A stretch of 64,000 nucleotides of DNA from Microgenomates group bacterium (GTDB taxonomy: Bacteria; Patescibacteriota; Microgenomatia; UBA1400; MFAQ01). Each line of letters opens with the position of its first letter. Position 1 is the stretch's first letter. Positions 890 to 20,178 of this stretch are shown piece after piece. The stretch lies in NCBI GenBank assembly GCA_049303575.1, contig JBAQNH010000002.1, positions 572,541-636,540 on the forward strand, read 5' to 3'. The notes below the pieces were generated by a model, which saw only the letters and a program-made list of their open reading frames with translations, did not search any database and had not been told where the DNA came from. The translations under genes and the position numbers were made by a program.

Positions 890-2402
890 GAAATCGGTAA
901 TTCTCTGTATTCTCGATGGTTGGGGAATAGCTCCCCCTGGTCCAGGTAATGCCATAGACATTGCCAACCCAAAAACTTATAACTATCTGCTTCAAAACTA
1001 TCCCTCAACTCAACTTTTGGCTTCAGGACCGGCGGTCGGTTTACCCGAAGGTCAAGATGGCAATAGTGAAACTGGTCATTTGAACATTGGTGCAGGTAGA
1101 GTTGTCTTTCAGGATTTAGCCTTGATTAATATGGCCATAGCCGACGGAAGTTTTTTCACCAACAGAGCTTTACTGGACACCGTCAAACATCTCTCTTCTT
1201 TTCAGTCCAATCTCCATTTAATCGGTATGATTGGCAACTCTGGTGTTCACTCCTACAACGAACACCTCTTTGCCCTATTGTTATTTGCCAAAAAAAATAA
1301 CCTTCAAAATGTTTTTCTACATCTGATTACCGACGGACGTGATAGCCCTCCCGATAACGCCATCGAGCAAATAAAAATTGTTCAGGAAAAAATACGAGAG
1401 ATTGGAGTTGGCTCCATTGCTTCAATCATTGGACGATACTATGCCATGGATCGAGATCTACGTCTGGACAGAACCCAAAAAGCTTTTGACTGTCTTACAA
1501 AAACAAATCTCAGGTCGGAACAAGATCCTTCTGCTTATCTAGAAAAATCCTACGCCGCCAATATTTATGACGAGTTTATCGAGCCCGTTTCCATTGGAGA
1601 CAATTCCAATAACTCCAGAATCAAATCCGGAGATTCCGTTGTCTTTTTTAACTTCAGAACCGACAGACCAAGACAACTAACGGAAATGTTCTTTGGGTCG
1701 GGAATTCCCAATTTAAGATTTGTCACCATGACCAAATATCGCAAAGACTACCAAAATCCGGTTATGTTCTCTACCACTACGCTTTCCAATACCTTGGGGG
1801 AAGTCATTTCCAACCATAATTTAAATCAATTAAGAGCTGCCGAGACGGAAAAAATTGCTATGGTTAGCTACTACTTTAATGGCCAAAGCGAAGTTCCTTT
1901 TCCGGGAGAAACAAACCTCTTTATCGATTCCCAAAAAGTAACTACTTACGATCTCACTCCTCGTATGTCCACGGACAAACTCGTTGAGGAGTTTCAAAGA
2001 AAAATTAAGGAAGATAACTTTACTTTATCCGTCATCAACATCGCCTGTCCAGACATGGTTGCTCACACCGGCAAAATAGATAAAACCGTTGAAGCTATCA
2101 AGGCTGCTGATGACGCCATGGGAAATTTAGTTAATCTTTCCAAAGAAACAAACTCCTATTTATTAATCACCGCCGACCACGGTAACGCCGAAGAGCTACT
2201 AGACCTCAAAACAGGCAAGGTAAACACCCAGCACTCGAATTTTCCCGTACCCTTCATCGTCTATCATCCGACCGACAACAAATTTAAACTCCAGCCGGGA
2301 AAACTAGGTGATGTTGCTCCCACCATACTTTCGCTACTGGATTTCCCGGTACCTGCGGAAATGAACGGTAAGGATCTGATCTTAAGAGAAAAATCTCTTT
2401 AA
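882..2402 (+). CDS. gpmI: 2,3-bisphosphoglycerate-independent phosphoglycerate mutase
   Basis: ATG at 882 overlaps the eno stop (ATGGATAA). The protein MDKKSVILCILDGWGIAPPGPGNAIDIANPKTYNYL...ITADHGNAEE is the iPGM family. Glycolytic neighbour of eno. Confidence 0.9.
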   Translation: MDKKSVILCILDGWGIAPPGPGNAIDIANPKTYNYLLQNYPSTQLLASGPAVGLPEGQDGNSETGHLNIGAGRVVFQDLALINMAIADGSFFTNRALLDTVKHLSSFQSNLHLIGMIGNSGVHSYNEHLFALLLFAKKNNLQNVFLHLITDGRDSPPDNAIEQIKIVQEKIREIGVGSIASIIGRYYAMDRDLRLDRTQKAFDCLTKTNLRSEQDPSAYLEKSYAANIYDEFIEPVSIGDNSNNSRIKSGDSVVFFNFRTDRPRQLTEMFFGSGIPNLRFVTMTKYRKDYQNPVMFSTTTLSNTLGEVISNHNLNQLRAAETEKIAMVSYYFNGQSEVPFPGETNLFIDSQKVTTYDLTPRMSTDKLVEEFQRKIKEDNFTLSVINIACPDMVAHTGKIDKTVEAIKAADDAMGNLVNLSKETNSYLLITADHGNAEELLDLKTGKVNTQHSNFPVPFIVYHPTDNKFKLQPGKLGDVAPTILSLLDFPVPAEMNGKDLILREKSL

Positions 2403-3103
2403 CTGCCGATAGAAATCAGCAAAACCAGCTCTCCTTTAATTCTTTTTTCTTTTGACGACTCAAGCAGTTGTGTCAAACTTCCTCTTATTATTTTTTGCGA
2501 CACTTTCGTCAAATCCACAGCTAAACATGCGGGTGTATCCTTACCCATAATTGCAATTGCCTCAGGTAAGATTTTTTGAAGTCTCAAGGGGTTCTCATAA
2601 ATAACCGCTGTCATTTTTGAAATTGTACCCATTTCTTTAAGAGTTGCTAGCACTGCTGTTCTTTTTCCAATTTTCTTTGGTAAAAATCCCACGAAGATAT
2701 AACGATCGGTTGGTAATCCGGAAACAGCCAAAGCAGCGCTTTCCGCCGTTGGTCCCGGAACTACATCAACCTCCCAATTCATTTCTACGGCCTTACTGAC
2801 CAGCTTATACCCCGGGTCAGAAATCAGAGGCATACCAGCGTCAGAAACCAAAACCACAGACTCCAATGAACAAATTTCGGCTAGTATTCTTGGCAGTATT
2901 TTGGCTTCATTAAAATCGTTAATAAATCTAATTGTCCCGGAAAATTTTTGCACATGTCCCATCTGCATCAACTTACTCCACAAATTATTAAACATTCTGC
3001 TGTCCTCACAAATTAAATACTTAGCTTCCTGCAAAGTTTTTAAAGCCCGAAGAGATATATCCTCAATATTACCTATTGGGAGTCCGACTATGGTTAGTTT
3101 CAT
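2399..3103 (-). CDS. rsmI: 16S rRNA (cytidine1402-2'-O)-methyltransferase RsmI (tetrapyrrole-methylase fold)
   Basis: MKLTIVGLPIGNIEDISLRALKTL...SDAGMPLISDPGYKLV...VPGPTAESAALAVSGLP is the RsmI signature. It overlaps the gpmI 3' end convergently. Confidence 0.85.
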   Translation of the reverse strand: MKLTIVGLPIGNIEDISLRALKTLQEAKYLICEDSRMFNNLWSKLMQMGHVQKFSGTIRFINDFNEAKILPRILAEICSLESVVLVSDAGMPLISDPGYKLVSKAVEMNWEVDVVPGPTAESAALAVSGLPTDRYIFVGFLPKKIGKRTAVLATLKEMGTISKMTAVIYENPLRLQKILPEAIAIMGKDTPACLAVDLTKVSQKIIRGSLTQLLESSKEKRIKGELVLLISIGS

Positions 3104-3106
3104 AAA

Positions 3107-3727
3107 TTAAAATTTGCGTATAACGCCAACGCACTTACCCTGTACTTTAACATTAATTGCGAAAATAGGGGACATAGATGAGTTTGCCGGTTCCAAACGG
3201 ACTCTGGTTCTTTCGCGAAAAAATCTTTTTAAGGTAGCTAAACCGTTTTCTAGCAAAGCCACCACAATATCACCGTCCTTTACTCCGGCTGCATCACACT
3301 CTTCAATAATTACGTAATCATGGTCAAAGATTCCTTCTTCAATCATCGAGTCTCCCTTAACCTGTAAAACAAAGGCTCGTTTCTTGCCCGAAAGCATCGA
3401 TGCCGCCACCTTCATGGAAGCATTAGGGTCAGTTAGCGGTTCAATTGGTCTTCCGGCTGCGATAAAACCTAGTATTGGTAACTCAATTGAAGCCGACTCC
3501 ACGCTTCCACGATCAACCAGTGAAATTCCTCGAATTGCTCCCTCAAATTTTTTAATGATATTTTTCTTTTCCAAAGCTTGGAGATGTTCGTGAACGGTAG
3601 CCAGAGAAGAAACTCCAATTGCACCTGCAATTTCCGAAAGGGTGGGGGAGTAACCATTTTTTTGAATAAACTGGGAAATAAATTCCACGATCTGTCTTTG
3701 CCTTCGATAAAGTGTTACGGTCATAAC
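3107..3727 (-). CDS. lexA: LexA repressor (SOS regulator, S24 peptidase)
   Basis: N-terminal winged HTH (LYRRQRQIVEFISQFIQKNGYSPTLSEIAGAIGVSS) and C-terminal autocleavage domain (AAG cleavage site, VKGDSMIEEGIFDHDYVIIE...GDIVVALLENGLATLKRF). Start set at the internal Met (MTVTLYRRQ) of the longer ORF 3107..3808. Confidence 0.85.
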   Translation of the reverse strand, partial: VMTVTLYRRQRQIVEFISQFIQKNGYSPTLSEIAGAIGVSSLATVHEHLQALEKKNIIKKFEGAIRGISLVDRGSVESASIELPILGFIAAGRPIEPLTDPNASMKVAASMLSGKKRAFVLQVKGDSMIEEGIFDHDYVIIEECDAAGVKDGDIVVALLENGLATLKRFFRERTRVRLEPANSSMSPIFAINVKVQGKCVGVIRKF

Positions 3728-3777
3728 TTCATTATTACCAAACAATACCCAAAAGTCAAGCGCTCGAAACTTCACCC

Positions 3778-3797
3778 TTGCGGTGATATAATCGCAA
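3778..3797. promoter_or_regulatory. Candidate operator: inverted repeat TTGCG-N10-CGCAA overlapping an extended -10 (TGaTATAAT, 3784-3792) in the lexA/uvrB divergent intergenic region
   Basis: The sequence cccTTGCGgtgaTATAATCGCAAcc is read directly. It sits about 40 nt upstream of a GTG start preceded by AGGAGGG. Role as a LexA box is inference. Confidence 0.3.
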
Positions 3798-3833
3798 CCA
3801 ACAGACAATTTTGCATCTTAACAGGAGGGTATC

Positions 3834-4169
3834 GTGCTCAAAGAATTCCTAGACAGAATTTTGGGTATTAAAACCAAACCCCGTGTGGAAAATTCCCAGC
3901 AGGTGCCTGAGGGAATTGAAACCCAAACAGGACCAAGAAAGGAAATTCTTACGGGAGGATTTGTTTATGTACATCCCGAAGAGTGTGAAGGCTATACTAT
4001 GTTCACCGATAACATCGGCAATGCTGTTAAATTCATCCACTCGGCCAAAACACTCAAAGAAAAGAAAGAAAGAGAAAAACTGTACGAGGAAGTGGGTAAG
4101 AGGGAAGCACTCTATCTCGCCAATGCAATGGTAGCAAAAATACAAAAACATCTAGAATCAAATCAATAA
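3834..4169 (+). CDS. Hypothetical 111-aa protein downstream of the lexA-divergent promoter
   Basis: GTG start with strong SD (acAGGAGGGtatcGTG). Followed by a clean rho-independent terminator. No recognisable domain. Confidence 0.5.
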   Translation: MLKEFLDRILGIKTKPRVENSQQVPEGIETQTGPRKEILTGGFVYVHPEECEGYTMFTDNIGNAVKFIHSAKTLKEKKEREKLYEEVGKREALYLANAMVAKIQKHLESNQ

Positions 4170-4176
4170 AAAAACC

Positions 4177-4203
4177 ACCCGATCACCCGATCGGGTTTTT
4201 TTT
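4177..4203 (+). terminator. Rho-independent terminator (ACCCGATC-acc-GATCGGGT followed by T8)
   Basis: Perfect 8-bp stem and T-run seen directly after the 3834..4169 ORF. Confidence 0.7.
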
Positions 4204-4220
4204 CGGGTAAAATATAGACT

Positions 4221-6269
4221 GTGGAATTTAAGATTAAATCGGACTACCAACCCACGGGGGACCAACCTCAAGCAATTGAGCAACTTTCCACAGCCATTTC
4301 TTCCGGGAATCCTCACCAAACTCTTTTGGGGGTTACCGGCTCAGGAAAAACATATACTGTCGCGAAAGTAATCGAAAAAACTCAACTACCCACTCTTGTC
4401 ATCTGTCACAATAAAACTCTCGCCAGTCAGCTATACCAAGAGTTCCGTGATTTTTTCCCGGACAACGCCGTTAGTTACTTTGTCAGCTACTACGACTACT
4501 ACCAACCGGAAGCATATCTTCCCAGCTCAGACACTTACATCGAAAAAGAAGCCGACATTAATCCGGAGATCGATAAACTTAGACTTACCACTACCGCCAA
4601 CCTCTTGTCTCGTCCGGACAGTATTGTCATTGCCTCGGTCTCTTGTATCTACAACATTGGCTCACCAATAGATCAAGAAAAAAATATTCTTACCCTGGCA
4701 ATAGGTCAGGTAATTGCCCGAGACACCGTACTTATGAGACTCGGTGATCTTCAGTACACTAGAACTAACGCCGAACTTTCTCGAGGCACTTTTAGAGCTA
4801 TTGGTAGCACCGTTCAGCTATACCCCTCATACAAAGACATCGTTATTTCCATGGTTTTTGAAGGTAACATTTTAAAAACAATCGACATTCTGGATCCCTA
4901 CAACTTTACAAAAACTGCCGACCCGGATCTTGAAAAAAGTGGTTTAATCACCATCAATCCAGCTAAGCTCTTCATTACTGATCCCAAAACACAAGGACAA
5001 GCTATCGACAATATTCGAAAGGATCTACAAACTCAAATCGAAAAATTTAAAAGCGAAGGTAAAACCATCGAAGCCTACCGTTTGGAACAAAAAGTTAACT
5101 ATGACCTTTCTATGTTAGAAGAAGTCGGCTATGTAAATGGCATTGAAAACTACTCCCGTTACTTTGACGGACGTAAACCGGGAGAACCCCCATATTCCTT
5201 ACTGGAATATTTTCACTACAACGCCAAAAAATTTCATAAAAAGGGTTTCCTCACCGTCATTGATGAATCACATATTAGTCTCCCTCAAATACGTGGCATG
5301 TATAACGGTGATCAATCAAGAAAAGAAAATCTCATCAATTATGGTTTTCGTTTACCTAGTGCCAAAGACAACCGTCCTTTAACTTTCACCGAGTTTCAGT
5401 CCCGCACACCACAAAACCTTTACTGTTCCGCTACTCCCAGTGATTATGAACTTTCTCTCTCGAAATCAAGCACCATTCCTACCGTAGCAGAGCAACTCAT
5501 CCGCCCAACCGGCCTCTTGGACCCGGAAGTATTTGTCCGTCCTGTCAAAGGCCAGATCGAAGACATTAGTAGGGAAGTCCTTGAACGGAAACTTAAAGGG
5601 GAGAGAACTTTGGTTCTCACTATGACGAAAAAAATGGCTGAGGATCTGTCAGAACATCTCCGCGAAAAATACAAAATTAAAGTCGAATACCTTCACTCAG
5701 ACATCAAAACTCTAGACCGAGCCGATATTCTCGAAAGTCTCCGTCTGGGAAATGTTGATTGTTTGGTGGGTATCAATCTTCTCCGCGAAGGTCTCGATCT
5801 ACCGGAAGTCTCTCTGGTTGCCATACTTGACGCCGACAAAGAAGGTTTTCTCCGTACACCAACTGCCCTAATACAAACAATGGGTAGAGCCGCTCGTCAC
5901 ATCAACGGTCAGGTCGTTCTTTACGCCGATAAAATCTCACCCTCCATGGACATTGCAATGAAAGAAACTGCCAGAAGAAGAATTACCCAAGCCCTCTACA
6001 ACAAAAAACACGGTATCACTCCCATCGGTATCAACAAACCCATAAGGGAAGCCTTGCTTCATCGTGACTCGAGCGGTCCAGCACCAAAAATCAAGGAACT
6101 TGCCGAGTTCGGTTGGACGGAAATTGAAGATGTTAATGCCGAGTCGCTTACTCCACAAAAGAAAAAGGTCTTGATAACTAAACTCAAAAAGATGATGACC
6201 CAAGCCGCCAACTCCTGGAACTTCGAGCTTGCTGCTCGCTACCGCGACACCATCCAAAGGTTGCAATAA
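4221..6269 (+). CDS. uvrB: Excinuclease ABC subunit B
   Basis: GTG start. MEFKIKSDYQPTGDQPQAIEQL...GVTGSGKTYTVAKVIE... plus helicase motifs and the C-terminal UvrB/UvrC-interaction motif (ELAARYRDTIQRLQ). Confidence 0.95.
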   Translation: MEFKIKSDYQPTGDQPQAIEQLSTAISSGNPHQTLLGVTGSGKTYTVAKVIEKTQLPTLVICHNKTLASQLYQEFRDFFPDNAVSYFVSYYDYYQPEAYLPSSDTYIEKEADINPEIDKLRLTTTANLLSRPDSIVIASVSCIYNIGSPIDQEKNILTLAIGQVIARDTVLMRLGDLQYTRTNAELSRGTFRAIGSTVQLYPSYKDIVISMVFEGNILKTIDILDPYNFTKTADPDLEKSGLITINPAKLFITDPKTQGQAIDNIRKDLQTQIEKFKSEGKTIEAYRLEQKVNYDLSMLEEVGYVNGIENYSRYFDGRKPGEPPYSLLEYFHYNAKKFHKKGFLTVIDESHISLPQIRGMYNGDQSRKENLINYGFRLPSAKDNRPLTFTEFQSRTPQNLYCSATPSDYELSLSKSSTIPTVAEQLIRPTGLLDPEVFVRPVKGQIEDISREVLERKLKGERTLVLTMTKKMAEDLSEHLREKYKIKVEYLHSDIKTLDRADILESLRLGNVDCLVGINLLREGLDLPEVSLVAILDADKEGFLRTPTALIQTMGRAARHINGQVVLYADKISPSMDIAMKETARRRITQALYNKKHGITPIGINKPIREALLHRDSSGPAPKIKELAEFGWTEIEDVNAESLTPQKKKVLITKLKKMMTQAANSWNFELAARYRDTIQRLQ

Positions 6270-6902
6270 TTAGCGGAATTTACAAGCCGTAACAACTCTA
6301 CCACCGATAGCGTCTCTGGAAGATGAAGTATCAATTTTTCTATCACCGATCGCTAGATCATCTGGATCAAAATTATTATTTTCCAGAAACTCCGCCAACA
6401 CTTTCATTGCTTTCTTACCATAGAACTGACTTTCCCTAGTACGATTATCCAAGAGAATAAATAACTGTGTCCCTTTTTTGCAAAATCTTTCAATATCGCT
6501 CAGTAAACCTTCCTCAACAATGCTCTGTGGGTTTGGCGCCACCATCATTATTAAATCGACCTTTACATCCGGTAGTTCATCAGTATAGCCAGGTACAATT
6601 ACTCTTTTTGTATCCTCGTCAATCCTTAAGGAACCTTTTCGAAAATCAATATTATTTGCGTTGATTGCCCGATCTACTCCGATCCAAAGATCACCCTTTC
6701 TTTGACTAACTGATAAATTAGTTCTCTCTCCTCCCGGACCAACATCCAAAACCACAAAATTTCTACCAACAAGAAGGTTCTCCATCTTTTCTTTCTTTTC
6801 CACGGCCCTCATATTACCAAAATCAACCACTTCATAACTTAGGCTACTGCTGATTTCAGTCTTCTTTGCTTTTTCCGAATTTTCGTTATTCGTTATTTCC
6901 AT
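6270..6902 (-). CDS. Putative SAM-dependent methyltransferase-fold protein (TrmB-like pattern). Function uncertain
   Basis: VVLDVGPGGERTNLSV...LWIGVD...KVDLIMMVAPNP resembles motif I / motif II / post-II of class I methyltransferases, closest to the tRNA m7G46 methyltransferase layout. Not a confident family call. Confidence 0.4.
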   Translation of the reverse strand: MEITNNENSEKAKKTEISSSLSYEVVDFGNMRAVEKKEKMENLLVGRNFVVLDVGPGGERTNLSVSQRKGDLWIGVDRAINANNIDFRKGSLRIDEDTKRVIVPGYTDELPDVKVDLIMMVAPNPQSIVEEGLLSDIERFCKKGTQLFILLDNRTRESQFYGKKAMKVLAEFLENNNFDPDDLAIGDRKIDTSSSRDAIGGRVVTACKFR

Positions 6903-6958
6903 ATCACCATTATAAGCACATTTACATTAACAGTCATTCGGGTATTTTAGGGTGAAAA

Positions 6959-9901
6959 ATGTTAAAATATAGCGTTATGTCGGAAATCTCACCATCAACC
7001 CATCTCATCATCAGGGGAGCCCGTCAACATAATCTTAAAAATGTTGACCTGATAATTCCCAAAAACAAGCTGGTGGTTTTCACTGGTGTTTCGGGTAGTG
7101 GTAAATCCAGTATGGCTCACGACACCATCTATGCCGAAGGTCAACGTCGCTATGTCGAGTCTCTAAGCTCATACGCCAGACAGTTCTTAGGTGTTATGGA
7201 TAAACCAGATGTTGATCAGATTGAGGGTTTGTCTCCGGCCATTCTCATTGACCAAAAACAGGGAAGTCACAATCCCAGAAGTACCGTCGGTACCGTCACT
7301 GAAGTTTACGACTATCTCCGTTTACTTTTTGCTCGTATTGGTCATCCTCATTGTCCAAACTGTGGCCGAGAAATTATGCCTCAAGACATTAATCAAATCT
7401 ACAAAGCAGTTGTCGAGTTGGCTGTTTCCCATCCCTCATACCAAAAACAAAAGGGGACTAGGGTTATGATCATGGCTCCTTTGGTAAAAAATCAAAAAGG
7501 TGAATTTGCCGATTTATTTCCCAATTTATACAAACAAGGTATTGCGCAAGTTAGAGTTGATGGAAAAATTCTCTCGACCCAATCAACTTTAAGTCTTTTC
7601 AAAAATAATCGTCACAACATCGAAGCCATTATCGATAAACTGGTCATTGGCCAAGTAAACAACGGCATCGAATACGAAAAACAACGTTTGATTGACTCCA
7701 TTGAACAGTCAATCAAAATGGCTGACGGTGAAAGCATCATCAGTATTGTTGACGATCCATCTCTTTCCTTTCCTGAGAATCCGGAAAAAATGGAGGATCA
7801 TCTTTTTTCTCAAAAACTATCCTGTCCTGTTTGTAACATCTCGATTCCCGAAATAGAACCTCGTTATTTTTCCTTCAACGCTCCCGACGGGGCCTGTCCC
7901 GAATGTACTGGTCTGGGAACTAAAATGGTTCTCGACACGGACAGTATTATTTCTCCGACCCTTACCCTTTACGAAGGAGCTATCATTCCGTTAGCTTCTC
8001 AATTTGAAACACGTACTTGGTTGGCTAAACTCATTGTCGAAGCCATGAGTTCGGTAGATTTTTTACCTACCACTCCCTTGAGTCAAATGACCGAGAAACA
8101 AAGTCAAGCCCTGTTCTCCGGCACCGGAGATAAAATTTTCTCCGTCAAAGGCATTAACCGTCACGGAAAATCTGTTTCGTGGAAAAGTAAGTACGAAGGT
8201 CTCGCCAAAGAGTTTGAACGCCGCTATACCGAAACAAGCTCTGATGCTCTTAAAGAAGAAATCGAAAAATACTTAATCAAAAAAACCTGTCCTGTTTGTC
8301 AGGGAACCCGTCTCAAACCGGAAGTTCTTGCTGTCCACGTTGATGGCAAATCCATTAGTGAAGTAACCGCACAATCAATTGAGAATGATGTTGTCTTTTT
8401 TGAAGAATTAAATAAAAAACTTACTCCCTCGGAACAACAAATTAGTCTTCCCATTGTCAAAGAAATAGGGGACAGACTTAGTTTCCTTGTCTCGGTTGGT
8501 CTTGACTATCTGACTCTAGGTAGAGAGTCGGGTACTTTATCTGGTGGTGAACTTCAGCGAATTCGACTGGCAAGTCAAATTGGTTCTCGCCTTACCGGTA
8601 TTCTCTATGTTCTTGACGAACCCACCATCGGTCTTCATCAAAGAGACAATGCCAAACTCATTAAAACACTTCAAGAGCTAGTTAATCTCGGCAACTCCCT
8701 CGTCGTCGTTGAACACGACCAACAAACAATGGAGTCGGCTGATCACTTGGTTGAGTTTGGACCTCAAGCAGGAGAACTTGGCGGCAAAATTACTTTTGAG
8801 GGAACAATCGAGGAAATGAAAAAGTCCGGCTGTATTACTGGAAAATATATTTCTGGTGTAAATAAAATTATCGCCAACAAACCCAAAAATCCACCTGAAA
8901 GCCAGGGCTCAATTCGTTTGTCGGGTTGTAACCATCACAACCTCAAAGATGTCGACGCCGAGTTCCCCTTGAACAGATTTATTGCTGTTACCGGTGTTTC
9001 CGGTTCTGGAAAATCATCTCTTGTCGTTGAAACACTTTACGAGGCCTTATCCCAAAAACTCAACTCTATGCACCGCAAACAGGACATTACCTATGGTTCT
9101 ATCTTGATTCCCGATGCCGTCAAAAGAGTCTCTTTAATTGACCAAAGTCCAATCGGTAAAACTCCAAGAAGTAATCCTGCTACCTACACCAAAGTCTTTG
9201 ACCACATTCGTTTACTTTTTTCAAACACTCAAGAGGCTCGTTTCCGTGGATACGGACCGGGACGTTTTAGTTTTAATGTCAAAGGCGGTCGCTGTGAAAC
9301 CTGCCAGGGTGATGGTCAGCTGAAAATCGAAATGCAGTTTATGGGGGATATTTATATTACCTGTGACACCTGTAAGGGAGCACGGTTCAACGAACCAACA
9401 CTGGAGGTTGAGTACAAAGGTAAAAACATCGCCGACGTTCTAAGTATGACCATGGACGAAGCTGCTATCTTTTTCAAAAACATTCCTACCATAAACAAAA
9501 AACTCGATACCATCCGAAAAGTTGGTTTGGGATACATCAAGATGGGCCAGTCAGCACCAACCCTCTCCGGTGGAGAAGCCCAGCGTGTTAAGCTTGCCAC
9601 CGAACTAGCCAAAACCGGCAATGGCCACACCGTTTATATTCTCGACGAACCAACCACCGGACTCCATTTTGCCGATCTTAGCAAACTTGTCCAAACTTTA
9701 GTTGACCTGGTCAATCAGAACAACACCGTTATTGTCATCGAGCACAATCTTGACGTCATCAAAAATGCCGATTACCTCATTGATATGGGTCCCGAGGGTG
9801 GAAATGAGGGCGGAGAAATAATTGCCACGGGAAGTCCTCAAAAAATTGCTGATCACTTTGATACTGCTACTTCACAGGAATTAAAGAAACTTCTGTTGTA
9901 A
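6959..9901 (+). CDS. uvrA: Excinuclease ABC subunit A
   Basis: IIRGARQHNLKNVDLIIPKNKLVVFTGVSGSGKSS, two ABC ATPase modules, zinc-finger CxxC pairs, LSGGEAQRVKLA signature. The true start may be the internal Met at 6977. Confidence 0.95.
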   Translation: MLKYSVMSEISPSTHLIIRGARQHNLKNVDLIIPKNKLVVFTGVSGSGKSSMAHDTIYAEGQRRYVESLSSYARQFLGVMDKPDVDQIEGLSPAILIDQKQGSHNPRSTVGTVTEVYDYLRLLFARIGHPHCPNCGREIMPQDINQIYKAVVELAVSHPSYQKQKGTRVMIMAPLVKNQKGEFADLFPNLYKQGIAQVRVDGKILSTQSTLSLFKNNRHNIEAIIDKLVIGQVNNGIEYEKQRLIDSIEQSIKMADGESIISIVDDPSLSFPENPEKMEDHLFSQKLSCPVCNISIPEIEPRYFSFNAPDGACPECTGLGTKMVLDTDSIISPTLTLYEGAIIPLASQFETRTWLAKLIVEAMSSVDFLPTTPLSQMTEKQSQALFSGTGDKIFSVKGINRHGKSVSWKSKYEGLAKEFERRYTETSSDALKEEIEKYLIKKTCPVCQGTRLKPEVLAVHVDGKSISEVTAQSIENDVVFFEELNKKLTPSEQQISLPIVKEIGDRLSFLVSVGLDYLTLGRESGTLSGGELQRIRLASQIGSRLTGILYVLDEPTIGLHQRDNAKLIKTLQELVNLGNSLVVVEHDQQTMESADHLVEFGPQAGELGGKITFEGTIEEMKKSGCITGKYISGVNKIIANKPKNPPESQGSIRLSGCNHHNLKDVDAEFPLNRFIAVTGVSGSGKSSLVVETLYEALSQKLNSMHRKQDITYGSILIPDAVKRVSLIDQSPIGKTPRSNPATYTKVFDHIRLLFSNTQEARFRGYGPGRFSFNVKGGRCETCQGDGQLKIEMQFMGDIYITCDTCKGARFNEPTLEVEYKGKNIADVLSMTMDEAAIFFKNIPTINKKLDTIRKVGLGYIKMGQSAPTLSGGEAQRVKLATELAKTGNGHTVYILDEPTTGLHFADLSKLVQTLVDLVNQNNTVIVIEHNLDVIKNADYLIDMGPEGGNEGGEIIATGSPQKIADHFDTATSQELKKLLL

Positions 9902-9907
9902 TATCAA

Positions 9908-11722
9908 TTGATGATGAAGAGAGTCTCTGTTCTAACACAACTAATTCTCTTTATCGTCGCTTCTCTCATTTTTTCCCCCAAAGCCCTGGCCATCGTCAAG
10001 TTTAGTACCGATTTTCAAAGTTATTATCGTGTTGATCCCAGTGGAAATACCCACGTTTCTTTCATCATCAATCAAAAAAATAACCTTTCGGTTGTTTATG
10101 CTACGGACTTTGGACTCAACATCAACGAAACCAAAGTCTCCAATATAAAGGTCACCGATGAGGGAACTTACATCATTCCCGACGTCGTCAAAACCCTAAA
10201 CCAAACAACTATTTCTTTCCCCTTTGCCAAAAAAGTCGTGGGCAAAGACAAAGTTCATTCATTCATCATCGAGTACGACACCACTGACATTGCCACTAAA
10301 GTTGGCAACACCTGGGAAATTAACATCCCTCGTCTGGAAACTGATGAGAATATCTCCGATCGAACTGTCGTCCTTGCCGTCCCTGACAACTTTCCTGTTC
10401 CTGCATACATCGATCCCAAACCCGACACAGTTAATAAAAATGTCTATTACTTCAACGGCAGTAACCTTGGAAACAAAACTATCAGTGCTGTTTTTGGACA
10501 GACACAATTTTATAAAGGGAACATTTCCTATCACCTAGTTAATGAATCAAAATCCAAAATTAACACCGAAATAGCTCTGCCTCCTGACACCGCCTATCAA
10601 ACTGTTTATTACGAAAAGCTTGACCCCATGCCCTTGACCGTAATTTCCGATGAAGACGGTAATTATCTCGCAAGATATTCTCTCGAGCCAAATTCAAACA
10701 TCGAAATAAAGTTAGCTCTATATATCAAACTCAACTTTACTCCCAAGGCTACCACCCAAACACTTTCAGATAAATTTCTTCTTTCCAACTCAACTTGGAA
10801 CTTTGATAATGGTGTTTTTACTACCCCAGAGATACAAAATTTAACCACCCCAAAAGCAATTTTTGACTTTGTTGTCGACAAGATGAAGTACGACTACGAA
10901 AAAATAAATCGTCAAAAATCTCAAAAAACTCCGGCGGCCGAATCATTTATCAATAGCCAAAGTGCCATCTGCACCGATTTTGCTAATGTTTTTGTCAGCC
11001 TAGCGCGAAAGGTCGGTATTCCGGCACGAGAGCTTGAAGGTTTCGCCATTTCCGACAATCCCAATCTTAAGCCTTTATCTCTAACCCAAGATGTTCTTCA
11101 CGCCTGGCCGGAGTACTACAACCAAGCCACCAAAACTTGGGTTCAAATAGATCCCACCTGGTCAAACACCACCAGGGGAATAGATTACTTTAACAAACTG
11201 GACTTCAACCATATTGTTTTCGCCATCCATGGAGTCAGTCCCGACTATCCGATTCCTGCTGGAGGATATAAATATAAACAGGAAAAAACCAAAGACATTG
11301 CTATTGATCCCGTTCAGTCTCTAACCTTCCCCGAACCAAGCTTTACAATTGCCAACTCAACTCAAAAGGGAGCTGAACTAATTTTTGAAATCACAAACAA
11401 CTCCGGCGTCTCCTACACGGGGAACACCATTGTCGAACGCAACGAAGCTATGGCCGAAACAGAGCAAGAAATCACTGTCCCTCCTTTTGGCACAACCCAG
11501 TTAAAACTTAAGCTAACAAAACAGCCATTCATCGGTCAAATTAAAACAAAAGCTATAATCTACATCAATGGAAACCGTTTTGAACAGCCAATCACCATAC
11601 AGCCAGCGATACCTCAGGTTGGATTTTTCTCCCTCATCGGAGTCTTTTTGGGACTCATTGCCTTCCTTGCCAGGCGTTTACATCTTCGAAGACACAAACA
11701 AAAAACCGTTATATATCGGTAA
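9908..11722 (+). CDS. Secreted/membrane-anchored transglutaminase-like cysteine protease superfamily protein
   Basis: N-terminal signal peptide. Cys-His-Asp core CTDFANVFVSLARKVGIPAR...HAWPEYY...WVQIDPTW. C-terminal hydrophobic anchor (FFSLIGVFLGLIAFLA). The 3' end overlaps uvrC in another frame. Confidence 0.7.
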   Translation: MMMKRVSVLTQLILFIVASLIFSPKALAIVKFSTDFQSYYRVDPSGNTHVSFIINQKNNLSVVYATDFGLNINETKVSNIKVTDEGTYIIPDVVKTLNQTTISFPFAKKVVGKDKVHSFIIEYDTTDIATKVGNTWEINIPRLETDENISDRTVVLAVPDNFPVPAYIDPKPDTVNKNVYYFNGSNLGNKTISAVFGQTQFYKGNISYHLVNESKSKINTEIALPPDTAYQTVYYEKLDPMPLTVISDEDGNYLARYSLEPNSNIEIKLALYIKLNFTPKATTQTLSDKFLLSNSTWNFDNGVFTTPEIQNLTTPKAIFDFVVDKMKYDYEKINRQKSQKTPAAESFINSQSAICTDFANVFVSLARKVGIPARELEGFAISDNPNLKPLSLTQDVLHAWPEYYNQATKTWVQIDPTWSNTTRGIDYFNKLDFNHIVFAIHGVSPDYPIPAGGYKYKQEKTKDIAIDPVQSLTFPEPSFTIANSTQKGAELIFEITNNSGVSYTGNTIVERNEAMAETEQEITVPPFGTTQLKLKLTKQPFIGQIKTKAIIYINGNRFEQPITIQPAIPQVGFFSLIGVFLGLIAFLARRLHLRRHKQKTVIYR

Positions 11723-12914
11723 GTCGATAAGCGTCAAAACACGGATCAAGCAACACTATGAAGGCTTTCAAAGCGGCACGACTTCAGCGGCAAACTTCAT
11801 TCCCAAAACCCATTATCTATATTTTAAAATCGTCAGCAACGATCTTGAAGCCGTTATTACCGAGGCCAACTTCATCAAAACATATCAGCCCCGTTATAAC
11901 GCCATCACCAAAGACGGTAAATCTAATATCTACATCATCTTCACCAATGAACCGGACACCAAAATTAAAATCATTCACGCTACTGACATCCAAAGTTTGG
12001 AGCTAGATGACTACAAAAAACAAGTCTTTGGTCCTTACACTTCCGGCAGAGTCGCCGAAACCTTAGTTAAACTGAGCCGACGTATTTTCGGCTACTGCAA
12101 CGCCCCCTTTAACTCTCAAGGAAGGGCTTGTTTTAATTACCATCTCCATCAGTGCCCCGGTCCTTGCCAGTTTCTCATTACTCCCAAACAATACCACCGC
12201 CATCTCGGACAAATCAAAAAATTTCTCTCTGGTCAATTTGTCCAATTAAATAAAAGTTTAAATCGCCAAATAATTGTGGCCATTAAAAAACAAAACTTTG
12301 AGTTGGCCAATGATCTGAAAAATAAAATCATGAGCCTTGACCAGGCGCTGAAAAACCAAAATTCCAGCCTTCTTTTGAAACTTTCCGATGCCACCGATCA
12401 GGTTCAACATTTGATTGTTAGTACCCTAAAACATCCGTTACTTTCGAAACCACCCGTAAGAATTGAGTGCTACGACTTGGCACATCTCCAAGGCGACAAC
12501 TATGTTGGTTCCATGTCGGTATTTATCAATGGAACTTCAGAACCTTCACTCTACCGCCACTTTAATATCAAGGGAGAAAAAAGATCAGATCCCCATGCTA
12601 TGAAAGAAATTATTTTTCGTCGTTTTAATCATCCGGAGTGGGGGAGACCGGACCTTTTGGTTCTTGATGGTGGAGTACCCCAACTCTCCATTGTCTCTTC
12701 AGTAATACCTCCAAATATTCCCACAATCGCCTTAGCCAAAAAGAGAGAGACTATTTATTTTTACGACAATAATTACGACAATAATAAAGTCACTTCTCTA
12801 AATCTGAATCTCGAAGATCCCGTCCTCAATCTCCTAAGGAATATTCGTGATGAGGCACATCGTTTTGCCACCACATTCCACATCAAAAAACGCCAAGAGT
12901 CGCTCCTGGCGTAA
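11568..12914 (+). CDS. uvrC: Excinuclease ABC subunit C, short form lacking the C-terminal (HhH)2 domain
   Basis: GIY-YIG module (PGVYIFEDTNKKPLYIGKSISVKTRIKQHY), UvrBC-interaction region, and EndoV-like domain with RDEAHRFA. The protein ends about 15 aa after that. The start is ambiguous: ATG 11568, or TTG 11619 which would give the E. coli-like spacing before PGVY. Confidence 0.85.
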   Translation: METVLNSQSPYSQRYLRLDFSPSSESFWDSLPSLPGVYIFEDTNKKPLYIGKSISVKTRIKQHYEGFQSGTTSAANFIPKTHYLYFKIVSNDLEAVITEANFIKTYQPRYNAITKDGKSNIYIIFTNEPDTKIKIIHATDIQSLELDDYKKQVFGPYTSGRVAETLVKLSRRIFGYCNAPFNSQGRACFNYHLHQCPGPCQFLITPKQYHRHLGQIKKFLSGQFVQLNKSLNRQIIVAIKKQNFELANDLKNKIMSLDQALKNQNSSLLLKLSDATDQVQHLIVSTLKHPLLSKPPVRIECYDLAHLQGDNYVGSMSVFINGTSEPSLYRHFNIKGEKRSDPHAMKEIIFRRFNHPEWGRPDLLVLDGGVPQLSIVSSVIPPNIPTIALAKKRETIYFYDNNYDNNKVTSLNLNLEDPVLNLLRNIRDEAHRFATTFHIKKRQESLLA

Positions 12915-12974
12915 TACTTAAGTTTGTCGTGAAGTAATCGACAAAATTTGGGCAAGCTCTTATATACTGGTATT

Positions 12975-13388
12975 ATGAAAGCCTTTTTAAGGGCAATTTT
13001 AATCAACCTTCTCGTCGTCTATCTGGTGGATGCTGTTTATCCAGGATTCTCGATACTTCATGATGCCAAAACACTCATTACTGCCGCCGTTATTTGGCTC
13101 CTGTTAAACAAGATCGTGAAGCCGATTATCAAGCTCCTCTTTCTTCCGATTAATCTCATTACCCTCAACCTATTTTCCTGGGTTGTCAGTCTCATTACCC
13201 TCTTTTTACTACCCTTAATTGTCAGCGGGGTCAAAATTTCCCCTTATGATTTTCCGGGGTTTAGTTACCAGGGTTTTAGCATCCCCGCATTTCACCTCAA
13301 TTTGTTCCTCTCATTTCTCGTTGCCTCCAGTTTTTTGAATTTATTTCACAACACAATCGTCTGGATTATCAAGAAAGACTCAGATTAG
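12975..13388 (+). CDS. Phage_holin_4_2 / DUF360 family membrane protein
   Basis: LINLLVVYLVDAVYPGFSI...ITLNLFSWVVSLITLFLLPLIVSG and four TM segments match the PF04020 pattern. ORF track starts at 12948; the internal Met at 12975 is chosen. Confidence 0.55.
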   Translation: MKAFLRAILINLLVVYLVDAVYPGFSILHDAKTLITAAVIWLLLNKIVKPIIKLLFLPINLITLNLFSWVVSLITLFLLPLIVSGVKISPYDFPGFSYQGFSIPAFHLNLFLSFLVASSFLNLFHNTIVWIIKKDSD

Positions 13389-13412: not shown

Positions 13413-13634
13413 ATGAAACTATCACTCATCGTTCAAATTCTCCTTTCGCTGGTCCTCATTGTCTTAGTTACTCTTCAATCAAAAGAGACCTCGCTCGGTT
13501 CTGGTTTCTCCTCGGTCACCCAGAGTGGCCTTCACACTAAACGTGGACCTGAAAAAATGATTTACTTGGCGACAATTATCGTCGCAATCGTTTTTGTAAT
13601 ATTTTCTTTCCTTAATATTGCTATCTGGAAATGA
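13413..13634 (+). CDS. secG: Preprotein translocase subunit SecG
   Basis: 73 aa, two TM segments, central LQSKETSLGSGFSS...GLHTKRGPEKM loop typical of SecG. Confidence 0.7.
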   Translation: MKLSLIVQILLSLVLIVLVTLQSKETSLGSGFSSVTQSGLHTKRGPEKMIYLATIIVAIVFVIFSFLNIAIWK

Positions 13635-14968
13635 TTAAGACCATAAGAGAGAGAGTTTGGTTCATCAAAGGCTTTCTCCAAAAATACAGTAAACAGATCG
13701 TTATTAGTGTCATTATCACGATTGTTTTTTCTCTTCTCGCCAACATACTCACCAAAAACACCTCCAGTAGGAGATCAGAAATTAAAATCGGCATCGTCGG
13801 TCAGTTCGGTGCCGGTCAGCTTCCTTCATATATTATCGATTACTTGAATGCCGGGTTAGTCTCCATCGACGAAAATCTTCAACCTGTCCCTGGACTTGCC
13901 GAAAAATGGGACATCGAAGACGGAGGTAATACCTACACCTTTTATTTAAAACCGGATCTCGAATGGTACGGAGGTGCAAAAGTTAAAGCCTCGGACATCA
14001 AATTTTCCATTCCCAACATTATTGTCGAAACTCAAGACCCCAACATTATCAAGTTCCGAATTCCTACTAAATTTGCACCCTTCCTCTCACTTTTAAACAT
14101 CCCGCTTCTAAATTCAAAAGGGAGCATCATTGGAAACTACGATATTCGTTTGAAACAAAAAAGTTCGGGGATAATTACCCAGATCATTCTCGAATCAAAC
14201 TCCCAAAAAATAGTTTTTAATGTTTTTTCTACTCCCAAACAGGCAATCACCGCCTTCAAATTAGGTCAGTTGAACTTAATACTAGGGCTACCTTCGGAAT
14301 ACTCAAGTGATCTAACCTCCTACGCCAACCTTGAGGAAAAGACTGATTTTAATCGTGTTGTAATGTTGGTTTTTAATCAAACAGATCCAAATCTAAAAGA
14401 CAAAAATATCCGACAGGGGATTGCTTACGCTCTAAACGACAAGTCCTTTGGACAGGCCGAAGCCCTTACCACCATTAATCCAAACTCTTGGGCCTTTAGT
14501 CCCCTCGTAAAAACCTATGAATACAACATAGGGAGAACAAAAGAGCTCATCACTACTCCCGTCGTCCTGGAACTCGCCACAACACCAGAACTGCTTCCGG
14601 TCGCCGAAGTTATTAAATCACGACTAGACTCGGAACTAATAACCATAAATACCAAAGTCGTAACCTCCACCCCTGATCAATTTCAACTATTACTCACTAC
14701 TTACAATATTCCCATCGATCCTGATCAATATCGAGACTGGCACTCAACCCAAATTACCAATATCGGTAAAGGAGCCGATGAAAAAATCGATAAGCTTCTG
14801 GAAGACGGCCGTATCAACTTAGACCAAAAAGAGAGAAAAAGAATCTATATTGAATTCCAAAAAACCTTTTCGGAAGAACTACCCGCTCTGGTTCTTTACC
14901 ACCCAACCGTCATCGACGTCGCCAGAAACAAAGCAAACTTTGGAATCATAAGTAGCGGCGGTTTATAA
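13631..14968 (+). CDS. Extracellular solute-binding protein, family 5 (oligopeptide/nickel-type SBP), N-terminally membrane-anchored
   Basis: LVSIDENLQPVPGLAEKWDIEDGGNTYTFYLKPDLEWYGGAKVKASDIKFSI is the SBP_bac_5 signature. N-terminal TM helix. Confidence 0.7.
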   Translation: MIKTIRERVWFIKGFLQKYSKQIVISVIITIVFSLLANILTKNTSSRRSEIKIGIVGQFGAGQLPSYIIDYLNAGLVSIDENLQPVPGLAEKWDIEDGGNTYTFYLKPDLEWYGGAKVKASDIKFSIPNIIVETQDPNIIKFRIPTKFAPFLSLLNIPLLNSKGSIIGNYDIRLKQKSSGIITQIILESNSQKIVFNVFSTPKQAITAFKLGQLNLILGLPSEYSSDLTSYANLEEKTDFNRVVMLVFNQTDPNLKDKNIRQGIAYALNDKSFGQAEALTTINPNSWAFSPLVKTYEYNIGRTKELITTPVVLELATTPELLPVAEVIKSRLDSELITINTKVVTSTPDQFQLLLTTYNIPIDPDQYRDWHSTQITNIGKGADEKIDKLLEDGRINLDQKERKRIYIEFQKTFSEELPALVLYHPTVIDVARNKANFGIISSGGL

Positions 14969-14973
14969 GTTAG

Positions 14974-15047
14974 TGGACCCTGAGGGATTCGAACCTTCGA
15001 CCTCCTCGATGTAAACGAGGCGCTCTAACCAACTGAGCTAAGAGTCC
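14974..15047 (-). tRNA. tRNA-Val (anticodon TAC)
   Basis: Reverse complement folds as GGACTCT/AGGGTCC acceptor, D-loop AGTTGGTTA, anticodon loop TTTACAT, T-loop TTCGAAT. No encoded CCA. Confidence 0.85.
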
Positions 15048-15063
15048 GACATTAGAGATATTG

Positions 15064-15147
15064 TGCGCGGGAGAGGACTTGAACCTCCACGCCTTTTAGG
15101 GGCACTAGCACCTCAAGCTAGCCTGGCTACCATTACAGCACCCGCGC
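15064..15147 (-). tRNA. tRNA-Leu (anticodon GAG), long variable arm
   Basis: Acceptor GCGCGGG/CCCGCGC, anticodon stem CTAGC/GCTAG with loop TTGAGGT, T-loop TTCAAGT, extended variable arm. Confidence 0.8.
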
Positions 15148-15256
15148 ATAAAACTCATCTGCTTAAAATTTCACAAATTTTATCTCTTTTTCTAGATAAA
15201 CAGACGACATCGCTATTATAATACAGCTTCCTGATTAAAACCAACGATCTAGGTAC

Positions 15257-15337
15257 ATTGTGTGTGGGCGGGGAGGGACTCGAACCCTCATGAGTTGCCT
15301 CACAGCGTCCTGAACGCTGCGCGTCTACCATTTCGCC
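15257..15337 (-). tRNA. tRNA-Leu (anticodon CAG), long variable arm
   Basis: Acceptor GGGCAGG/CCCGCCC (one A-C mismatch), anticodon stem CAGCG/CGCTG with loop TTCAGGA, T-arm GAGGGTTCGAGTCCCTC. Confidence 0.7.
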
Positions 15338-15419
15338 ACCTGCCCAACCCTCATATTATCTCATTAAAACAGGCTCATGTGATAAAATACTTCATCCAAA
15401 ACCCTTCAGGAGGTGTCCT

Positions 15420-15662
15420 TTGAGAATCGAAAAAGACATAAATGCCAGAACCCTAACCGAAGAACGGAAAAGGGCCTGTATCGCCTGCAACCTTCTCCAA
15501 CAAGCTCAGCACCAAATTCGACTCCAACTCAAGCAAGCCATCATCGACCAAGACGCAGAGAAAATTACTTCTTTGCGTCGTCAACTCAAAAACAATCGTC
15601 GGGGCTATACCGGCCTTCGCCACCTGAACAAAGTTCTTCTTCGTCTCCGTCGATACATCTAA
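15420..15662 (+). CDS. Small basic hypothetical protein (80 aa)
   Basis: TTG start 6 nt after AGGAGG. Followed at 15671-15696 by a hairpin/T-run terminator. Arg/Lys-rich. No domain recognised. Confidence 0.4.
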   Translation: MRIEKDINARTLTEERKRACIACNLLQQAQHQIRLQLKQAIIDQDAEKITSLRRQLKNNRRGYTGLRHLNKVLLRLRRYI

Positions 15663-15670
15663 ACGAAATC

Positions 15671-15696
15671 AGCCACTCCACAAGAGTGGCTTTTTT
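15671..15696 (+). terminator. Rho-independent terminator (AGCCACTC-cacaa-GAGTGGCT followed by T6)
   Basis: Read directly from the sequence. Confidence 0.65.
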
Positions 15697-15714
15697 GATA
15701 TAATCAAGGCTGTT

Positions 15715-15787
15715 GCCAAGCTAGCCAAGGTGGTCACGGCGCGAGTCTGAAAAACTTGAGATTGAGGTTCAACTCCTCAGCTTGGCA
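15715..15787 (+). tRNA. tRNA-Phe (anticodon GAA)
   Basis: Acceptor GCCAAGC/GCTTGGC, anticodon stem CGAGT/ACTTG with loop CTGAAAA, T-arm TGAGGTTCAACTCCTCA. Preceded by a TATAAT box. Confidence 0.75.
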
Positions 15788-15802
15788 CATTGCACAGCCT
15801 AT

Positions 15803-15876
15803 GCGGGAATAGCTCAGTTGGCTAGAGCGTCTCCTTGCCAAGGAGAAGGTCGCGAGTTCGAGTCTCGTTTCCCGCT
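15803..15876 (+). tRNA. tRNA-Gly (anticodon GCC)
   Basis: GCGGGAATAGCTCAGTTGGCTAGAGC..., anticodon stem TCTCC/GGAGA with loop TTGCCAA, T-loop TTCGAGT, acceptor TTCCCGC, discriminator U. Confidence 0.85.
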
Positions 15877-15917
15877 CATTTCGATAAAGAATTATCTTTT
15901 GGGTATAATATACCTAC

Positions 15918-16763: not shown

Positions 16764-16797
16764 TTCCTCGAAGCTAATGGTAAAATACAACTGGTAT

Positions 16798-16870
16798 TGC
16801 CGAGTCGTCTAGTGGTAGGACGCCTCCCTTTGGAGGAGGATATCCTAGGTTCGAGTCCTAGCTCGGCAAC
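16798..16870 (+). tRNA. tRNA-Gln (anticodon TTG)
   Basis: U1:A72 acceptor TGCCGAG/CTCGGCA (typical of bacterial tRNA-Gln), anticodon stem CCTCC/GGAGG with loop CTTTGGA, T-arm CTAGGTTCGAGTCCTAG. Confidence 0.8.
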
Positions 16871-20146: not shown

Positions 20147-20152
20147 AACAAA

Positions 20153-20177
20153 AACCCTCCTAAAAAGAGGGTTTTTT
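20153..20177 (+). terminator. Rho-independent terminator (CCCTC-ctaaaaa-GAGGG followed by T6) after typA
   Basis: Read directly from the sequence. Confidence 0.6.
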
Positions 20178-20178
20178 G

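Follow-up and report, generated by a model that had tools for sequence, protein, structure and literature searches.

Conserved direct-repeat boxes at lexA and uvrA as predicted LexA operators in a lexA–uvr gene block of a Microgenomates bacterium

The window analysed here is a stretch of 64,000 nucleotides (nt) from a Microgenomates group bacterium (GTDB MFAQ01; GCA_049303575.1, contig JBAQNH010000002.1, positions 572,541–636,540), and all coordinates given are positions within it. The host is a bacterium of the candidate phyla radiation (CPR), a member of Microgenomates at the level of Ca. Collierbacteria. The locus of interest (3107–12914) contains lexA and the nucleotide excision repair (NER) genes uvrB, uvrA and uvrC. 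A 21-base-pair (bp) direct repeat fills the spacer of the lexA promoter and a second copy lies directly before uvrA. We consider it likely, with good confidence, that LexA represses through these direct repeats as operators at lexA and uvrA, and that a uvrA–transglutaminase–uvrC unit lies behind the second operator. The gene calls rest on Pfam and NCBIfam profiles, and they uphold the placement of lexA and all three uvr genes within 3107–12914 that an initial annotation of this DNA had proposed. The features that carry the argument are as follows.

3107–3724, minus strand: lexA (PF01726 and PF00717, TIGR00498)
3731–3759, minus strand: lexA promoter, −35 TTGACT at 3759–3754 and −10 AATAAT at 3736–3731 (promoter scan, sequence)
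3733–3753, minus strand: putative LexA box 1, direct repeat TTTGGGTATTG/TTTGGTAATA (matrix score, conservation)
4221–6269, plus strand: uvrB, GTG start (Pfam UvrB, UvrB_inter, Helicase_C and UVR)
6921–6948, plus strand: uvrA promoter, −35 TTTACA, 16-nt spacer, −10 TATTTT (promoter scan)
6937–6957, plus strand: putative LexA box 2, TTCGGGTATTT/TAGGGTGAAA (lexA-only matrix, conservation)
6959–9901, plus strand: uvrA (Pfam UvrA_inter, UvrA_DNA-bind and ABC_tran)
9908–11722, plus strand: transglutaminase-like gene (PF01841, Transglut_core)
11568–12914, plus strand: uvrC, 448 amino acids (aa) (GIY-YIG, UvrC_RNaseH_dom)

LexA (205 aa, ATG at 3724) is predicted to be a canonical repressor, with a winged helix-turn-helix domain, an S24 peptidase domain, an Ala-Gly site and a Ser/Lys dyad. 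The winged helix-turn-helix domain at the N-terminus covers residues 5–66 (PF01726, E=9.5e-17) and the C-terminal peptidase domain matches PF00717 (Peptidase_S24, E=1.2e-24). The score for TIGR00498 is 178.9 bits, compared with a curated cut-off of 110.95. In an alignment of 18 LexA sequences, A89-A90-G91 with the Ala-Gly cleavage site, Ser126 and Lys166 are invariant. An NCBI protein from a 'Microgenomates group bacterium' has the same sequence (100% identity), and several Collierbacteria LexA proteins share 83–90% identity with it.

The box is a direct repeat with the consensus TTYGGGTAWTnTnnGGTrA. Its half-sites, of the T-N2-GG type, are 11 bp apart, which places both on one face of the helix. 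Box 1 occupies the whole spacer between −35 and −10, and the block ATTATTACCAAACAATACCCAAAAGTCAAG (3731–3760) reads on the lexA strand as TTGACT-T-TTTGGGTATTGTTTGGTAATAAT, that is, the −35 hexamer, a 21-bp element of two halves and the −10 hexamer. This block is 100% invariant in the same alignment of orthologous promoters in which a nearby inverted repeat, treated below, decays. A comparison set of 80 species-level lexA loci was taken from genome assemblies (1.28 Mb in total, labelled with L numbers). All 24 lexA promoters at the Collierbacteria level carry TTGAC(A/T)-TTTGGGTAWTnTTTGGTaa at 8–10 nt before the ATG, with diverging flanks. Upstream of 79 Microgenomates lexA genes the top enriched hexamers are GGGTAT, TGGGTA and TTCGGG (15–21 fold), no motif is enriched besides the direct repeat and the TTGAC −35, and variants of the box are found between −35 and −10 in most of these regions. 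The lexA promoters of distant lineages (L041 and L045) read GTTCGGTGATTGTTCGCC, which is GTTC-N7-GTTC. In L004, L009–L011, L013, L014, L017, L018 and L021–L023 an extra box-like element, TTTGGGTTTTGTTAG-TTGACA, is seen just upstream of the lexA −35. Four half-sites stand in a row in these promoters with ~10.5-bp spacing, from about −49 to −8 relative to lexA. The lexA promoter of the window has the proximal half-site pair only, a single two-half-site box, unlike the tandem of four in L023 and many other relatives.

Box 2 overlaps the −10 TATTTT of uvrA, and a single nucleotide separates its end from the ATG. The matrix derived from lexA only was never trained on the uvrA site, so its ranking of this site is non-circular. 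With this matrix the second-best match in the 64-kb window is ATTCGGGTATTTTAGGGTGAAA at 6936–6957, 1 nt before the uvrA ATG, and of 15 related loci (10–20 kb each), 11 have the uvrA site as their top position outside lexA. Fourteen relatives, whose flanking sequences are unrelated, have TTCGGGTAWTnTnnGG at an unchanged distance from the start of uvrA, and repeats of the TTCG-N7-TTCG type precede uvrA in the distant lineages L030, L053, L055, L056 and L073. With a joint matrix, for which both window sites were part of the training set, box 1 scores 32.1 bits (top in 64 kb) and box 2 scores 28.3 bits. The next match in the window is intragenic with 14.5 bits, and shuffles of the window reach a maximum of 16.2 bits. 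Across the 1.28 Mb of related loci, all matches of at least 15 bits but one lie directly upstream of lexA or uvrA in the orientation of the gene.

Both copies of the repeat overlap −10-like hexamers and lie at most 10 nt from starts that have no Shine-Dalgarno sequence. This would fit an explanation in which the repeat is not a LexA site, and is either a promoter-intrinsic or leaderless-start signal or the site of another regulator common to lexA and uvrA. We regard this as improbable. The distance from the box to the −35 is 1 nt at lexA and 10 nt at uvrA, a shift in register of ~9 bp, so the box is a separate element and does not belong to the promoter hexamers. A start-proximal −10 is also present at uvrB, and at the transglutaminase-like gene of other lineages, yet these lack the repeat, which argues against a general promoter or leaderless signal. 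The repeat is confined to lexA, uvrA and rarA, all of them DNA-damage genes, and its enrichment before lexA, shared only with the TTGAC −35, speaks for a dedicated site. Autoregulation of lexA is near-universal. LexA is thus the predicted binding protein of the direct repeat.

The third gene of this group, rarA, carries the box in a sister lineage. In L143 (446–464), which like L206 and L208 is a Curtissbacteria-like contig, the box adjoins the start codon of rarA/mgsA, and Curtissbacteria is the annotation carried by this gene's relatives. Five further rarA loci (L206–L210) were examined, and two of the five have the box or a variant of it, while a third has a half-site. The same rarA box is found in L206 at 1482–1502 (25.9 bits). 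In L208 the −35 and −10 of rarA enclose a variant repeat (about 1465–1490), and L207 has a half-site only. No rarA box is found in the Roizmanbacteria-like L209 or in L210. The box thus marks DNA-damage genes, and since it is present at some rarA loci and absent from others, the membership of rarA appears to be specific to the lineage. Promoters with the box were also observed on metagenome contigs in front of unexpected genes. In L145 (588–606) a lexA-like promoter with TTGAC, box and −10 precedes a free-standing LAGLIDADG homing endonuclease (PF00961), and in L154 (221–239) and L157 (1968–1986) a lexA-like promoter with the box precedes a 211-aa secreted protein that has no family match. In the window, recG (44912–46897) has no LexA-box match upstream.

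A study of the DNA-damage network of Patescibacteria was published by Sanchez-Osuna, Barbe and Erill in 2017 (Environ Microbiol 19:3465). We infer that the box described here is the motif of that study. One of the comparison loci, L020, is that of Ca. Collierbacteria GW2011_GWB2_45_17. The LexA of the window is 87% identical to the LexA of L020, the helix-turn-helix region with the recognition helix (SSLATVHEHLQALEKK) is identical, and the lexA and uvrA promoters of L020 carry the same direct-repeat box. This LexA (KKU00362.1) is listed as experimentally validated in Table S2 of PMC8565304, with PMID 28618189 as the source. The Patescibacteria study is also cited in PMC7739468 among cases in which LexA recognizes a direct-repeat motif. 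The premise of the initial annotation that the SOS box of this lineage is not defined is therefore wrong, given the entry in Table S2 of PMC8565304, the same boxes, the 87% identity and the same recognition helix. The window represents another species than GW2011_GWB2_45_17 within the same candidate phylum, with a similar LexA and the same box at lexA and uvrA, and differs from it in two accessory open reading frames (ORFs) of 111 and 210 aa.

The box can be placed among other known SOS boxes. The GTTC-N7-GTTC motif of Alphaproteobacteria and Acidobacterium is a direct repeat of the same type with an 11-bp period, and L041 and L045 literally have this sequence. The Collierbacteria half-site differs in reading TTTGGG/TTCGGG, the GG is required, and the box is longer. 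In contrast to the Cheo box or CTGT-N8-ACAG, the operator of the window is a direct repeat. The uvrB and uvrA genes are adjacent in Firmicutes, and B. subtilis uvrBA (dinA) and E. coli uvrA and uvrB are LexA-regulated NER genes. The window shares the uvrB–uvrA adjacency of Firmicutes and a LexA box at an NER promoter. Unlike in B. subtilis and E. coli, the box of the window is at uvrA and not at uvrB, uvrC is part of the block, and an envelope gene lies between uvrA and uvrC. The uvrC gene of E. coli is not located with uvrA or uvrB, and it is not counted among the LexA-regulated genes.

Several observations weigh against LexA repression through these boxes. The classic test gene, recA, is absent from the window, and a tblastn search with an approximate E. 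coli RecA query detects none in any of the 200 loci retrieved. The joint-matrix scores of the two window sites are circular, and only the lexA-only results are independent. Box 2 falls on the probable −10 and the start region of uvrA, and signals for promoter function or translation could account for some of its conservation. Cotranscription beyond uvrA is deduced from the spacing of the genes. A motif scan of metagenomes gave at least 120 matches, of which those listed were mostly random and intragenic sites, and defined no regulon; those listed include three uvrA sites, one rarA site and three uncertain sites in a promoter context. LexA binding and induction by damage in this genome are themselves predictions from sequence.

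The remaining features of the locus and its flanks, on which the transcription units depend, are these.

2399–3103, minus strand: TP_methylase-family gene (Pfam PF00590)
3764–3792, plus strand: promoter of the 111-aa ORF, −35 TCGAAA, extended −10 TGaTATAAT at 3784–3792 (promoter scan)
3778–3797, no strand: inverted repeat TTGCG-N10-CGCAA, sequence TTGCGGTGATATAATCGCAA (exact match)
3834–4169, plus strand: 111-aa ORF, without family match
4177–4196, both strands: bidirectional terminator hairpin in the gap between the 111-aa ORF and uvrB (terminator scan, 8-bp stem and T-run)
6270–6902, minus strand: 210-aa ORF, convergent with uvrB, without significant family match
12948–13388, plus strand: PF04020 ('Phage_holin_4_2') multi-pass membrane protein, conserved 3' neighbour (Pfam, synteny)
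13631–14968, plus strand: SBP_bac_5 solute-binding protein, conserved 3' neighbour (Pfam, synteny)

In the proposed mechanism LexA would bind the direct repeat and occlude RNA polymerase at lexA and uvrA. DNA damage would lead to self-cleavage of LexA and release two transcription units. The first would consist of lexA and the TP_methylase-family gene, which begins 3 nt past the lexA stop on the same strand. In 21 related loci this gene trails lexA on the same strand at 36 bp or less, and it is probably cotranscribed with lexA. The small gap and the conserved proximity suggest that an RNA-methyltransferase-type gene may ride on the lexA transcript; the RsmI-like assignment is our own reading of the Pfam match to PF00590. 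The position of box 1 inside the lexA promoter points to autoregulation of lexA, which probably covers the TP_methylase gene as well. The second unit would consist of uvrA, the transglutaminase-like gene and uvrC, and possibly the gene of the PF04020 membrane protein. The starts of lexA, uvrB and uvrA all lie 7–10 nt past −10-like hexamers (3724–3736, 4205–4223 and 6943–6961) without a Shine-Dalgarno sequence; the lexA ATG follows its −10 by ~7 nt. This suggests that the three mRNAs are leaderless or near-leaderless. By contrast, the 111-aa ORF has a 35-nt leader carrying AGGAGGG.

The uvrB gene would stand outside both units, with a promoter of its own and no full box. Its −10 TAAAAT lies ~7 nt before the GTG start. 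The matrix scan and the alignment of upstream regions find no complete LexA box before uvrB, and the lone half-site at ~4198–4207 (TTCGGGTAAA) is not conserved. LexA control of uvrB in the window was rejected on these grounds. In this genome the 111-aa ORF and the bidirectional terminator at 4177–4196 also lie between uvrB and the lexA box, and insulate the gene from it.

The three Uvr proteins are identified by their domains. UvrA has tandem ABC ATPase modules with the DNA-binding and UvrB-interaction domains (PF17760, PF17755 and PF00005). UvrB has the helicase core, the UvrB interaction domain and a C-terminal UVR domain (PF00271, PF12344, PF17757 and PF02151). UvrC (448 aa) matches the GIY-YIG and RNase H-like domains and ends right after the RNase H domain. 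Its UVR match is below the threshold (E=0.0097), no helix-hairpin-helix domain is matched, and TIGR00194 scores 264 with a cut-off of 285. Relatives of this UvrC align over the same length.

The protein encoded between uvrA and uvrC was named transglutaminase-like in the initial annotation, a call that holds. It matches PF01841 with E=5.3e-18 over positions 14–108 of the 108 of the profile, and its PDB sequence matches, 6g49 and 3isr, are transglutaminase-like enzymes. By inspection, the Cys, His and Asp motifs are SAICTDFA, LHAWPE and QIDPTW, so the Cys-His-Asp triad is apparently intact. Again by inspection, the protein has a signal or transmembrane segment at its N-terminus and a transmembrane anchor at its C-terminus. 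The gene begins 6 nt past the uvrA stop, and in 14 loci it is the next gene after uvrA, at most 30 nt away. The 5' end of uvrC overlaps it in a different frame by 50–155 nt, whichever start codon is used; the GIY-YIG strand PGVYIF (11670–11687) is already encoded upstream of the stop of the transglutaminase-like gene (11720–11722). An overlap of ~104–152 nt recurs in the Collierbacteria relatives. The terminator scan finds no terminator-like site after uvrA until ~13.57 kb. The overlap and the 6-nt gap argue for a single transcript from the uvrA promoter, and together with the missing terminator they make uvrA, the transglutaminase-like gene and uvrC probably one unit.

The transglutaminase-like gene adjoins lexA even where the uvr genes lie elsewhere. 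It is divergent from lexA in L026, L033, L061 and L076, and in L044 and L054 it lies downstream of lexA in the same orientation. Together with the position behind uvrA, it is found near a LexA-linked promoter in three layouts, which supports a persistent link between the SOS response and this gene. The literature consulted holds nothing relevant on transglutaminase genes in LexA regulons or on uvrABC clustering in CPR bacteria. The SOS response of Microgenomates may in this way reach the envelope. The anchored extracytoplasmic enzyme, cotranscribed with uvrA and translationally coupled to uvrC behind a LexA box, could be an effector that is induced by damage and remodels the wall or arrests cell division, functionally analogous to YneA or ChiZ, a tentative idea that we hold to be rather unlikely. 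Its expression might extend to the PF04020 membrane protein and a solute-binding protein.

The order of the genes is conserved well beyond the window. Among the 80 loci, uvrB is divergent from lexA in 53 (at most 250 bp apart in 26 of these), and uvrB is followed by uvrA in 27. The full order of lexA and divergent uvrB–uvrA–transglutaminase–uvrC is found in 17 loci, among them some that carry the labels Collier-, Chisholm- and Daviesbacteria. The genes of the PF04020 membrane protein and of the SBP_bac_5 protein usually come next in the block. The clustering of lexA with the uvr genes, which the initial annotation had pointed out as unusual, is real and non-random, as the same order is found in many related genomes. 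The spacers are variable, from 63 bp to 6 kb between lexA and uvrB and from 71 bp to 6.5 kb between uvrB and uvrA. The recurrent order, with accessory ORFs in the variable spacers, points to an ancient synteny with insertions at the strain level and not to a recent assembly. To judge from these loci, the neighbourhood of lexA, uvrB, uvrA and uvrC is an old syntenic block across several Microgenomates candidate phyla.

Synteny of this kind could exist without any regulatory meaning. LexA would then regulate only itself, and uvrA, the transglutaminase-like gene and uvrC would be constitutive and merely close by. CPR genomes are compact and retain long syntenic blocks. The matrix scans of the window find no box of their own at uvrC or at the transglutaminase-like gene, and uvrB also lacks one. 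By inspection of the layouts in which the transglutaminase-like gene diverges from lexA, the box lies upstream of the likely −35 of that gene and not over it. Against such a neutral arrangement, the uvrA box is held at a fixed position in at least 14 species and was detected by a matrix that had never seen it, and the gaps and overlaps on the 3' side of uvrA leave no space for separate promoters. We consider the neutral arrangement unlikely. Repression of a uvrA–transglutaminase–uvrC unit by LexA from box 2 is the reading that we retain.

The spacer between lexA and the 111-aa ORF (109 bp) also contains the inverted repeat TTGCGGTGATATAATCGCAA, which the initial annotation had put forward as a candidate LexA operator. 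Both the perfect repeat at 3778–3797 and the extended −10 TGaTATAAT at 3784–3792, which it overlaps, are present as described. As an operator, the repeat would be bound by a LexA dimer and would repress the 111-aa ORF and the divergent lexA. The exact repeat over a strong −10 is suggestive, and most known LexA boxes are palindromic, as is generally held and as the introduction of PMC8565304 also has it. However, a perfect 5-bp inverted repeat with a spacer of 0–14 bp arises in 64% of shuffles of the 109-bp spacer, and the window-wide density of such repeats is ~2 per 109 bp. With at most one mismatch, TTGCG-N10-CGCAA occurs in two copies in the window compared with 1.08 expected. The exact sequence occurs once in 64 kb, and the sole copy with one mismatch is intragenic at 47854, far from repair genes. 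No copy is found near uvrA, uvrB or uvrC in the window, and no exact copy is found in the 80 related lexA loci (1.28 Mb). In the upstream regions of lexA there are only the window copy and one unrelated sequence with one mismatch.

The evolution of the repeat points the same way. Besides the window, only the near-identical strain L204 retains it. The other orthologous promoters that keep the ORF read TTGTG..CGTAG, TTGCA..CGCAA and TTGCA..CGCAG in the alignment. The substitutions break the stems without compensation and occur at the rate of neutral positions, while the adjacent direct repeat is invariant. The inverted repeat is also located beyond the core promoter of lexA, upstream of its −35, and the LexA motif of Patescibacteria is described in print as a direct repeat (PMC7739468). 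A comparative motif search across the relatives brought out this different conserved motif, the direct repeat. The proposed LexA operator at TTGCG-N10-CGCAA is thus not borne out, and we give it almost no credence. Its exact placement over the −10 of an ORF that is itself strain-restricted could also suggest the site of another, strain-specific regulator of the 111-aa ORF, unrelated to SOS. However, L201, L202 and L205 keep the ORF and the extended −10 and not the repeat, no candidate regulator lies nearby, and the repeat is at chance level; such a site is very unlikely, if slightly less so than a LexA operator. On this evidence the inverted repeat is best taken as a chance palindrome around the −10, not a LexA operator.

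The initial annotation had also noted unrelated genes interleaved in the cluster, and all three, the 111-aa ORF, the 210-aa ORF and the Transglut_core gene, are present at the positions listed. The promoter of the 111-aa ORF has 10 of 12 promoter matches with the TG motif, and the ORF has a strong Shine-Dalgarno sequence, AGGAGGG. Box 1 ends 10 bp upstream of its −35. It has no Pfam or NCBIfam match, and only six homologues are found in a collection of 5.8 billion proteins, all of 111 aa and 71–100% identical. The ORF is found at the same position in the extra loci L201–L205, which were added because they retain it, and the extended −10 is kept in all loci with the ORF. In L002, the LexA of which is 99% identical, the ORF is cut to a remnant of 8 codons, MLKKLPIV, which runs into the terminator (~5160–5260), and its promoter is degraded to TATCAT. 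The remnant, apparently left by a recent deletion, indicates that the ORF is dispensable. The SOS division-inhibitor genes yneA of B. subtilis and chiZ of M. tuberculosis are divergent from lexA. The 111-aa ORF resembles them as a small gene divergent from lexA with a shared intergenic region, and differs in having no transmembrane segment, LysM or family match, in being limited to few strains, and in that the box lies upstream of its −35. As a YneA/ChiZ-type division inhibitor it was rejected, since it has no domain match and, by inspection, no hydrophobic segment, and since the box lies off its promoter.

The 210-aa ORF had been described as having a TrmB-like methyltransferase fold. This is not confirmed, as its sole support is a sub-threshold match to NpmA motif I (E=0.006, 16 bits with a cut-off of 60). 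The matched motif, VLDVGPGG, is a possible S-adenosylmethionine-binding motif I. No NCBIfam match and no PDB sequence match are found for this ORF. A single-sequence AlphaFold2 model is poor (pLDDT 57.8) and gives no Foldseek match at E≤0.001. Outside the window it is limited to the closest relatives (L002, L016 and L201–L204). Both this ORF and the 111-aa ORF are accessory insertions at the strain level, in the two variable spacers.

Elsewhere in the window, a low-GC island (20000–32000) has a GC content of 0.36–0.37 compared with about 0.42. It contains a KAP-family P-loop NTPase (23413–26019, minus strand) and a large serine recombinase (29524–31119, plus strand), and it is flanked by tRNA genes for Arg/Leu (20178–20339), Gly (21066–21138) and Pro/His (31064–31276). 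The ORF of the serine recombinase extends 55 nt into the tRNA-Pro gene on the opposite strand. The island looks like an integrated mobile element. In total, 15 tRNA genes are found in four clusters (14973–16870, 20178–21138, 31064–31276 and 35400–37941), which is dense for a small genome, and the Rfam scan of the window finds tRNAs only.

Apart from the transglutaminase-like gene, this locus is an ordinary instance of the SOS system already characterized in Collierbacteria. LexA sites in Microgenomates should be sought with a direct-repeat matrix and not with palindrome searches, and the window offers two clean sites for this. In this lineage it is uvrA, not uvrB, that bears the box. The envelope transglutaminase-like gene, locked by overlap between uvrA and uvrC, is a mildly novel point as deduced from the gene arrangement, and of the points made here it alone might open up new biology. 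If this is true, the transglutaminase-like gene could link the SOS response to the envelope in CPR bacteria.

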